A stretch of DNA of 64,000 nt, from positions 231,532,719 to 231,596,718 of the forward strand of contig NC_092372.1 of the NCBI RefSeq assembly GCF_030028105.1, written 5' to 3'. Origin of the DNA: Mobula birostris. Taxonomy: Eukaryota. Below are positions 16,263 through 19,441 of the stretch, piece after piece. Each line of letters opens with the position of its first letter. The first letter of the stretch is position 1. Under the pieces are notes generated by a model, which saw only the letters and a program-made list of their open reading frames with translations, was not told the DNA's origin and made no database searches. The position numbers and the translations under genes were made by a program.

Positions 16263-16786
16263 ATCTAATTAAAGGGAAACTACACCTCATTTAAAAAACA
16301 GTAAATTTCCTGCTCCCACACACAATCCCCTGCCAAGTGCTCCGAGCCACACGTTGTGGTACTGCGGAGAAATCCACCCCGTCACCTCGCGTTTGTTCAC
16401 CACCGGGAAAGGGCATGTACAGGGAGCGAGGGGGGGAGGGAAGAGTTAGGCAGCCCACACACCTCCCTGGGGTGCATTCTGGGTAGAATGACATCACTGC
16501 AGCTGCACTGTACAAAACCTTCCACAGAAATCATTCAGCTGTGGATGATTTGTACAGGACAGCTACAGAACAAGCAGACCGGAGTGATGTCACCCCACCC
16601 AGAATACGCCACAGGTAGGAGCACAAGCAGCGACACCAGGCAGTGGGAGAAAAAGCAACGTCACGAGCTGGATTTCTCTCCAACACAGCAGCACATGATT
16701 CGGAACTATTGGCAGAGGATTGTGCCTGACAGCAAGCTGTTGAAACTTACCACTTTTTAAATGGGCTGAAGGCCCCTTTAACAGAT
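16263..16786 (-). other. Long imperfect intronic inverted repeat (predicted pre-mRNA hairpin)
   Basis: Paired blocks 16288-16309/16742-16763, 16321-16390/16655-16724 and 16462-16527/16539-16619, closed by an 11-nt apical loop at 16528-16538. Confidence 0.85.
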
Positions 16787-19441
16787 ACCAAACACAAGCT
16801 GACATCTGAGTCTATGTTTACTGGGACGGCCCTGACTTGTCCCCCCAGCCAATCGCAGAACATAGAGGCATGACAATGTAAATCAGAAGCTAAGCGCAAC
16901 CTGCTGTGGAGACAGGACAGAACCATTGCAGTAAACACGGTGGGTGGTTGGAAAGAAGAGATCGGAGACTGGTTTCAAAACTTATGCATTTATTATTTGG
17001 AAGTTGAATTACAAGCTGATTTGCTAGTAGGTGGGAAACTAAAACGATGCAGGTTCCTCATTGTCCAGTTGATGTAAAATGTCCAACACATTGAGGATGC
17101 ACAGGGGAAGTGAGCAGAGAGTGCCTTCCTTCACAGTACAGGACGCACTGATATTTTAAATCAATAAAGATTTAAACTAGATCTGCAGCACGAAACAAGA
17201 AAAAAATACTTGAAGTGCAGGCTAGCAAGAGTTCCAACTAATTTTTTGTGCACATAACTATCAAGGGTCCAACTCCAAGCACAGCGTTGCCATTCTTTAC
17301 AAGAAAATAGCGAACATGGGATTGTGACCCCAACGAGCAGAACAATGAGAACATCCAGAGGTGCAGATGGCACACTGAACAACAAGCAAAGTGTCAGCAC
17401 ACAGAATGGATGTCCAGAGATCACTGTAGTGTCTGGTTATAATTAAGGGTCCAGACAGAGTTGGTTAATGCCGCCCTTCTCTATGATCCAGTCAGTTCCG
17501 TGTATAATCTTCCAACTACTTTTACAAAAGGGATCTTTCACTTGATTGAAAACAGTCAAGCATTGTCAAGTGAAGCACAGCTCCTAGAGATTTCACTGGC
17601 AGGTAACTAAGCCAAACCCACAGTACCTGCTCAAAGTCTTCCCTGTACTCCACACAAAACAAAGACATGGTCAGAGCCAGCTGCCAACAGGACAAGCCAA
17701 GAATAGATGCTATGTAATTTTTTTAAAACAAAACTCCAGTCTAATGTCCTGCAATTGCTTTTCATGAAAACATCACTAGAAAAAAATATTGCAGAGGGAA
17801 GATAGGCAAAACCCAGCCCAGTCTGCCTGGCTCCCTCCCTCCAAACCCCAGGATGGTCCTGGGAGGTGCAGTCACTCAGAATGCCGTGTGCTCCTGGCTG
17901 TGGCACCTTAATGCTGGAATTTATAGCTGCTGCTTCTTCTGAACAGACAGGCTGCTTGGCTGGCGAGGAGGGCGCTCTGCAGCCGAATCCTGCTCTATAT
18001 GAAAGCTTGGAAGAGACACAAAGAAAAGAGGTCGTTTCTAATCACATCATAGGAACCGTTATGGCAGCATTCATAAAAATTAGTAAAATCCTAGAGATTA
18101 AACATGGGCACAAAAACGCTGCTTTAATGAGGACTGGAGGAACTGAGGTTAAACTCGGGATCCATTGTAAAGTCACCAAGGTTTTTGCTCTCCACAAACC
18201 CAGCTCAGGAAGCTCAAACAGTTAACACTCACTATTCGCTATTATCAATACCTTTCCACAAGACCAATCAGGACACTAAATATTGTGCACTCTGTCTGAT
18301 GATCTTCTGTCCCAGAACATTTAATCTCATCTACTCTCTCTCTCTCTCTACCTTGCATTATTATGTTCTTCACTCCATTCACATGTCTACCCTATCCCAA
18401 ATCTCCCCCTCGCAACATCTTTAAACCATATTAATCTAGGAACAACTTGCAGCACTGCACCCACCGTCTGGAATACACATATTCAACATATTCACGGCAC
18501 CCAACTACCCTAAACTCCTCACAGCTCAGCTGTCCCTGCTTTCCACAATGCTATGATTTCAGTGACAGTCTTTAGCCTTTATGGTAGACACAAACAAGTG
18601 ACCAAGCCCAATGTTTCGGATTTTCTTGCAATGAAACCTGTGCCCAAAACAGTTAGATCTCTAACCTTGTGTAAATCTAGCTCCCCTCAGAAGTCTACTT
18701 AAGCCATACAAGATGTGCAATTCTCTCAACGCTCAATAGCCAATTGTGCATCATCATTAGCACATCAGTTCCTCTATTTACCAGCTATCCCTAAATTTAC
18801 TTACCAGTTGTTGGATGGTTAACAAGTTAGAGCAGTGACAAGTGTCTCAAATGGACAGTCCTATTGTCACATTTGATCACGTGTTGAAGCATATCCCTGA
18901 TCAGTTGCTGAGGCATGCATTAATATACAGCATGCCTGTAACAGCCCTTAACCAATGAATCCAGAACATCTCTGTCTACTATAAATAAACCTACAAGTTG
19001 AGACGTAACCTGTAATGTGAAAATTGCTACATCATATGGCACCTGAATATCTGCTGGGGTGCTTTGGTTGTTTTGAGGGAAGGGGTTAGGGGTGGAGTGA
19101 CCACCCAAATCACATCAAGATAAGTGAAGCAGCACTTGACCAGTGCACATTAATTATTAAAAATATAACTGAATCAAGTTGTGAATTACAGAGGAACATC
19201 TAGCTGTCTACAACACTACCAAATAGATGACAACAAAATGAGCTTTTCCCATTACCACAGATAGCCACAGCCACTTACAACCACCAATTTCACAACCACA
19301 ATCCATTTATCACCAACTACATCTGCTTCAATGCTTCATTTCTTTCATATACCACAGATACATTTCACATTGATGCAATCGAAAGGACCTTAGTCTGCTG
19401 TGGTCGCACAGCCCACACATTAATGTATTTGAGTGACTTAC

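Follow-up and report, generated by a model that had tools for sequence, protein, structure and literature searches.

Long edited intronic stems raise the editing of nearby short duplexes lying upstream or downstream of them (PMC3479170, PMC5654063). The editing inducer elements of the Gabra-3 I/M and GluA2 Q/R sites are built in this way, with a long edited intronic stem near a short, highly edited coding duplex. In transcripts of RBM39, a paralogue of the U2AF65 family, the stem-loop SLi sequesters the 5′ splice site of exon 2b, a stop-containing cryptic exon that acts as a poison exon (PMC10477243). The decoys of SF3B1 intron 4, OGT, and ARGLU1 lie in large retained introns of splicing regulators, as cryptic cassettes undetected in untreated samples (PMC6097662). 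Here, we describe an intron of the splicing factor gene PUF60 of Mobula birostris, located in a stretch of 64,000 nucleotides of contig NC_092372.1 that is referred to as the window. The intron is partly retained, A-to-G differences cover both arms of its long hairpin, and two neighboring codons of the next exon are recoded. We consider it fairly probable that the hairpin serves as an inducer of ADAR editing and that a candidate exon whose donor lies in it is a masked cryptic one.

The minus strand of the window encodes PUF60, as an earlier sequence-only reading of the same DNA had named it. The translation of exon 15945–15732 is identical to shark and ray PUF60, and the exon has one locus genome-wide. 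The ray PUF60 protein maps by tblastn onto minus-strand exons spanning 62253 to 3562. RNA was represented by six contig sets (X15–X20) with three species labels from three studies; these and one DNA run make up the seven used of 23 listed runs. Organism A (X15, X16) is the species of the window, organism B is represented by X17 and X18, and organism G includes X19. The DNA comparison run comes from a fourth organism, C. The RNA evidence consists of assembled contigs, from which rare isoforms are dropped, and no sample with blocked nonsense-mediated decay (NMD) is among the runs.

The predicted long hairpin (16780–16270, 510 nt) has a folding energy of −246 kcal/mol and a z-score of −13.1, and none of 100 shuffled sequences was equally stable. 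All listed differences of organism A contigs from the window, 24 of 24 for X15 and 19 of 19 for X16, are T to C on the plus strand and so A to G in the transcript. The 27 places displayed for organism A lie within 16287–16837, on both arms; 22 of them recur in X17 and all 27 in X19. One X16 contig differs at 18 of 99 stem adenosines and at none of 659 in the remaining intron (Fisher p 3e-17). Clustered A-to-G changes are the mark expected of ADAR on double-stranded RNA, from which we infer the editing enzyme. The sequence-only reading had invoked unwinding or editing of the duplex, and the differences agree with editing, including positions 16747, 16758, and 16762 on one arm and 16302, 16292, 16291, and 16287 on the other arm of the helix around the candidate donor. 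Editing on both arms supports the predicted fold in vivo. An origin of the hairpin from a repeat or transposon was rejected, as it has one match in the genome in a search that skips common words. Rfam returned no family over the hairpin; its single match, a weak one (E 0.34), lies outside it.

In X16 and X18, the spliced contigs have AGC ATG in place of AAC ATA, which changes the protein from GRPSNIG to GRPSSMG. Every X16 and X17 contig covering 15920–15943 has two differences there; 9 of 9 X16 and 6 of 6 X17 records are accounted for, and those over 15920–15929 each differ by at least two letters. Only edited contigs were assembled from these two sets, a statement about assembly and not a quantified level. 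Judged by contigs, the neighboring coding sites are edited at a high level. In the predicted fold, 15929 and 15925 each pair with uridines of the intron pyrimidine tract in the short stem 15984–15896. Asn-207 hydrogen-bonds the second base bound by RRM1, through its main-chain amide in one subunit (PMC7703929), and Ser-206 stacks on the first bound base (PMC10229228). Separately, X15, X16, and X19 have contigs that branch at 15919 of the minus strand, some with a third difference, which is likely a partial synonymous edit of a Gln codon.

It is very improbable that the A-to-G differences are genomic variants, assembly errors, or reads from a paralogue. They are of one change type, confined to stems, and shared by three species labels. 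The DNA of the same sample as X16 contains all 64 words of the unedited stretch, and organism C DNA has the genomic base at 16 of the 18 places edited in the X16 contig, although it carries a genomic cytosine at the other two. The word share of organism B DNA, 0.86, leaves no space for about 20 further substitutions. The recoded exon is a single locus, and contigs of the flanking exons show no differences from the window. What speaks for variants is that the exonic sites are compared with the assembly alone and that teleosts fix A-to-G changes at these same codons.

Exon contigs continue into the 15946–19441 intron in all six runs (X15, X16, X17, X18, X19, and X20). At the upstream border, 19536, contigs of all six runs join the exon at 33096, with the upstream intron removed. 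General contamination with DNA is an unlikely source of this pattern, because it would cover both introns and would carry no edits. In X20, the contig of the seventh exon enters the intron unbranched and has no loose end at 19440, a hint that the retained form is dominant there. Contig depth, a poor measure of level, is 13–36 in the intron and 55–370 in the junction contig. These depths hint that the retained fraction is a minority in organisms A and B and is larger in organism G. Whole-intron retention and recoding of the next exon are the RNA outputs seen, and the sequence-only reading had proposed neither.

Two further observations concern the ends of this intron and of the next. The motif CUGUAAU, 26 nt before the real acceptor (15971–15972, minus strand), looks like a branch point. 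Because X17 has T to C at 15971 and some X15 contigs diverge at 15972, retained RNA may carry an edited branch adenosine. If it does, we propose that splicing would be blocked. The start of the 12-kb downstream intron (15600–15731 and beyond) is covered by contigs of 983–2,599 nt in X15, X16, X17, and X19. This coverage represents retention or an intronic last exon, and the cyprinid-like Logan protein P0065 reads through the same border.

We favor the following sequence of events. The pre-mRNA would fold into three stems, predicted throughout and, for the long one, supported by editing on both arms. ADAR would load onto the 510-nt hairpin and edit many of its adenosines, and it would also edit the short stem 341 nt downstream. 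The short stem, with a z-score of −5.7, may hide the 3′ splice site and slow intron removal, which would leave time for editing. This duplex can be present only before splicing, because one of its strands is the intron pyrimidine tract. A scan for a distant partner of the exon start gave no clean duplex candidate, and folding favored the local stem. The retained fraction would be unable to code for full PUF60, and the spliced mRNA would encode GRPSSMG in a loop beside the base-binding pocket of RRM1, with a putative effect on binding. We propose that the candidate exon is skipped in the assembled isoforms because the stems keep both of its splice sites paired. Positions of all features are listed in the table.

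Features of the PUF60 intron and its surroundings, in window coordinates
Feature	Position	Strand	Evidence
PUF60 coding exon ending ...GGRNIK, seventh by tblastn count, end of RRM1	19442..19534	minus	RNA contigs join it to 33096 on the upstream side and 15945 on the downstream side
Intron, 3,496 nt, partly retained; read-through meets a stop after 37 codons	15946..19441	minus	contigs crossing exon-intron borders
Stem pairing candidate pyrimidine tract and AG with the candidate exon's own body, edited at 16837	16815..16937	minus	z −4.6; edit in 6 of 6 RNA runs
Candidate 150/153-nt cryptic exon (poison exon of the sequence-only reading), no splicing seen	16751..16903	minus	sequence; no joint in six RNA contig sets
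In-frame TGA of candidate exon	16883..16885	minus	sequence
GTAAGT donor of candidate exon, paired in hairpin base; some contigs edited at its +4 A (16747)	16745..16750	minus	sequence, fold, RNA contigs
Single-copy long hairpin with A-to-G editing on both arms; probable editing-inducer element	16270..16780	minus	fold, genome match, RNA contigs
3′ arm pairing with candidate donor and last exon bases	16288..16309	minus	predicted fold
Short stem over real 3′ splice site; tract and AG pair with first 30–50 nt of next exon	15896..15984	minus	z −5.7
PUF60 coding exon VGRPSNIGQ...GYGFI, RRM1–RRM2 linker and first part of RRM2	15732..15945	minus	protein match, single locus
Recoding AAC to AGC, Asn to Ser, human Asn-207	15929	minus	loose ends of spliced contigs, X16 and X18
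Recoding ATA to ATG, Ile to Met, human Ile-208	15925	minus	spliced contigs, X16 and X18

Several points weigh against this sequence of events. Both the role as inducer and the explanation of retention are argued from anatomy and analogy. The distance of 341 nt and the size of 510 nt exceed those of the tabulated known inducers compared (32–220 nt and 60–149 nt, respectively). G precedes 4 of the 27 edited sites and 27 of 134 adenosines, so the 5′ neighbor bias of ADAR is weak here. None of the listed runs is recorded as RNA, and the RNA status of the six is a guessed label, which for one of them is 'probably DNA', yet spliced joints are present and for that reason we treat all six sets as RNA. 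Contigs alone give no percentages of editing or retention, the DNA side of 15925 and 15929 is the window assembly with no separate DNA run, and the exonic edits were not directly read in organism G. RNA contigs also cover the downstream intron over its first 130 nt, and for this reason slow splicing may be a regional property that the stem does not cause. The replacement of Asn by Ser may change little, because the contact to the base is a main-chain amide in one subunit; teleost puf60b tolerates genomic Gly or Ser at this site.

The sequence-only reading had placed a structure-gated poison exon in the intron, and all the sequence features it named are present. The NAGNAG acceptor reads TTCTGTCCTGTCTCCACAG/CAG/, with AG at 16905–16904 and 16902–16901, so that the exon is 153 or 150 nt long, starting at 16903 or 16900. 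After the phase-0 RNIK of the preceding exon it encodes (Q)VALSF followed by the TGA. The donor is the consensus GTG/GTAAGT, matches the U1-complementary motif at 7 of 9 positions (compared with 8 and 6 at the two real donors on either side), and pairs with the opposite arm as described, with probabilities of 0.62–1.0 over 16763–16742. Four of the nine donor-site bases (16753, 16752, 16751, and 16746) are in G-U wobbles. The TGA lies 132 nt ahead of the exon end. Stops more than 50–55 nt before a downstream junction trigger NMD, and the predicted consequence of splicing the exon therefore also stands. Organism B, which has diverged by only about 1%, retains the candidate AG and GT. A second consensus donor, CTG/GTAAGT, occurs at 18805 of the minus strand in the same intron, where it has no filter-passing acceptor or joint in RNA contigs.

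The use of the candidate exon in RNA is not borne out so far. All six sets lack joints and loose ends at 16751, 16900, and 16903, weak evidence as contigs drop rare forms. Single contigs pass through both candidate splice sites in X15, X16, X17, and X18. The sole joint seen is the normal one from 19442 to 15945 (X16, X17, and X19, with loose ends in X15, X16, and X18). The candidate exon is not among the assembled isoforms, an absence compatible with its existence, as an NMD target would be scarce and scarce forms are lost from contigs.

The idea that editing frees the donor finds no obvious support either. With the edits modelled as G, which overstates the pairing of inosine, opening the donor costs 8.0 versus 9.4 kcal/mol, and the pairing persists. 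The edit at 16747 alters the +4 A of the donor away from the consensus. The edit at 16837, found in all six runs, turns an A-C mismatch opposite the candidate pyrimidine tract into a pair. Several edits in the donor helix would loosen it, so that editing may act on the exon in either direction. The candidate acceptor also appears to be locked, in the stem 16937–16815 (z −4.6, in a segment chosen after the fold was seen), which the sequence-only reading had missed. Its predicted opening cost is 18.3 kcal/mol, compared with 17.0 for the real, used acceptor and 5.9 for that of the upstream exon.

A poison exon of low splicing rate, which editing or unwinding would open and NMD would destroy, would be compatible with both editing and recoding, and we regard it as rather unlikely. 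It has a good acceptor, a suitable donor and stop, and edits at as many as seven positions of the donor helix. The acceptor stem is built like that of the real acceptor, and because the latter is used, a locked site can be used. The arrangement has a parallel in RBM39, and decoy or poison cassettes are often rare or undetected when NMD is not blocked (PMC6097662). Set against this are the missing joints in sets whose contigs cross both sites, the abundance of such pseudo-exons, and the edits themselves, which leave the donor paired, weaken it, and tighten the acceptor stem.

How common such pseudo-exons are bears directly on the chance that the exon has no role and that the hairpin and its editing work without it, an alternative to which we give nearly even chances. 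On the minus strand of the window, the filter that accepts the candidate exon accepts 13 acceptor-donor pairs in all, namely two real PUF60 exons, the candidate, and 10 others; on the plus strand, it accepts six. Taken by themselves, the splice signals are therefore not beyond chance; GTAAGT arises easily in an A/U-rich helix arm, and no use of the exon was seen. Chance accounts less well for two splice sites that both lie in stems with z-scores below −4, and for an edited acceptor stem of the same build as that at the real acceptor.

The exon could also act unspliced, as a decoy that engages the terminal splice sites of the intron and drives its retention, as in SF3B1 intron 4 and OGT. The intron, 3,496 nt long, retained, and belonging to a splicing factor, with a cryptic cassette unseen in untreated samples, fits this description (PMC6097662). 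The region of candidate exon and hairpin has a word share of 0.56 in organism C, compared with 0.245 expected (132 substitutions in 2,970 nt, p 0.003), and looks more constrained than the intron average; the constraint is not visible in the very close organism B. The estimate covers exon and hairpin together, and for this reason the constraint is not assignable to the exon. A decoy needs sites exposed to U2AF and U1, whereas both sites here are predicted to be paired, and the retention could already be explained by the stem over the real 3′ splice site. We consider a decoy unlikely. The stronger result is the edited, retained intron with double recoding of PUF60, and the poison-exon reading is unproven.

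The recoded residues were compared with those of other animals. All chondrichthyan database proteins fetched read SNIG. Of 571 proteins from named sources, a redundant and query-biased set, 474 have SNI, 77 GNI, and 10 GSI, and 10 lack the motif; the Gly and Ser forms are of the teleost PUF60-B type. SSM was found in none of 605 proteins or 150 representatives, weak evidence as the searches were ranked by unedited and teleost queries. In distant homologs, Met is the commonest residue at the Ile position (49 of 88 with the motif; 62 of 150 had no match). At the Asn position, Gly is present in 6 of 34 proteins found only in Logan, JGI, or ENA and in none of the 571 named ones, which may reflect genomic change.

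Homologous introns were sought in metagenomes, giving 29 loci, four of them of vertebrate type (L002–L005). These teleost and mammal loci have no long hairpin or stable acceptor stem within the at most 836 nt available upstream (z −0.35 to +2.4). The spliced contig of L005 keeps the intron before the exon and differs from genome-derived cod PUF60-B at only 2 of 375 residues, Ser to Gly and Asn to Gly. Both differences are of the A-to-G type, at the Ser and Asn codons of this motif, and may be edits or genomic changes. The puf60b loci L005:400–470 and L004:740–800 share a conserved intron end of about 22 nt before the exon, and L005, which retains the intron, has an extra A-to-G-type difference just before the AG. 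Among proteins P0655–P0664, two RefSeq versions of loach PUF60-B differ exactly here, with SNI in.1 and GSI in.2. GNI is genomic in salmonids, catfish, and some carps, and Danio has GSI, a repeated fixation of A-to-G changes at the edited codons.

In zebrafish puf60b, three editing sites with levels of 13%, 2%, and 1.5% are listed in supplementary tables only (PMC8096273 Supplementary Tables 2 and 5). Their spacing of 0, +4, and +20 nt (synonymous Pro, Ser/Gly, and Gln/Arg) fits GRP..IGQAQ and resembles the ray, and from this spacing and the zebrafish GSI we infer that the +4 site is the codon position of Asn-207. Zebrafish differs in its genomic Ser at this position and low levels, and its table rows include no Ile to Met change and describe no hairpin or retention. 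PUF60 is not in the human list of 1,517 sites of PMC8897444, and it has no row in the supplements of PMC9989829, PMC10659053, and PMC10636886, which may list gene identifiers in place of symbols. PMC6093180 has no mention matching autoregulation, retention, or editing. Apart from the zebrafish rows, the open-licence literature gave no report of a PUF60 poison exon, a retained intron, or Asn to Ser or Ile to Met recoding.

The recoded residues are unchanged in all shark, ray, and tetrapod and most fish database proteins fetched, and one of them is a described base contact. If the recoding is true, genome-based annotations would misstate the main PUF60 protein of these animals. High-level recoding is rare in vertebrates and has been found mainly in neuronal genes. 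We speculate that one structured intron could determine how much PUF60 is made and with which RNA-binding sequence, as an old feedback circuit of jawed fishes, an idea that we hold as doubtful. ADAR acting on the hairpin would recode the base-contact loop of RRM1 in most mRNAs, to Ser-Met in rays, where Met is the residue of distant homologs, and to Gly in transcripts of cod-like teleosts. The edited stem would hide the tract that PUF60 would bind, and the masked poison or decoy exon would serve as overflow. The loop would be reciprocal, because PUF60 is cited as a regulator of A-to-I editing.

Two features elsewhere in the gene were noted. An alternative PUF60 exon (TLGSFRKWGCWELCDCLDSKD), at about 34447–34515 of the minus strand, is present in some ray isoforms, and mammals have a different optional exon there. 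The upstream intron contains, at 20940–22000, a 169-nt inverted repeat (96%) among retroelement-like open frames, likely inverted copies of a repeat element.

Each part of the PUF60 arrangement is already known in kind, and a stem over the donor of a poison exon has been described for RBM39 (PMC10477243). If only the poison exon were true, the locus would be a parallel to RBM39 and less new. The RBM39 exon is spliced and responds to RBM39, whereas inclusion of the ray exon is unseen, both of its sites appear to be masked, and its stems are edited. Vertebrate-wide conservation and U2AF binding characterize the known decoys (PMC6097662), whereas the ray sites are predicted to be paired and were compared among close relatives. 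The likeness to editing inducer elements extends to the codon change, as the Ile to Met recoding of ray PUF60 is ATA to ATG, like that at the inducer-linked Gabra-3 I/M site. The putative inducer stem of the ray lies upstream of its target and is longer and farther from it than known ones, and its role is assigned by analogy. The short duplex of the ray differs from those of known inducers in using the pyrimidine tract of the upstream intron and covering the 3′ splice site. The targets of known inducers are neuronal receptors, whereas that of the ray is a general splicing factor. An inducer-like stem, masking of a 3′ splice site, and intron retention are thus joined in one intron, which offers exact bases at which editing and splicing may be coupled.

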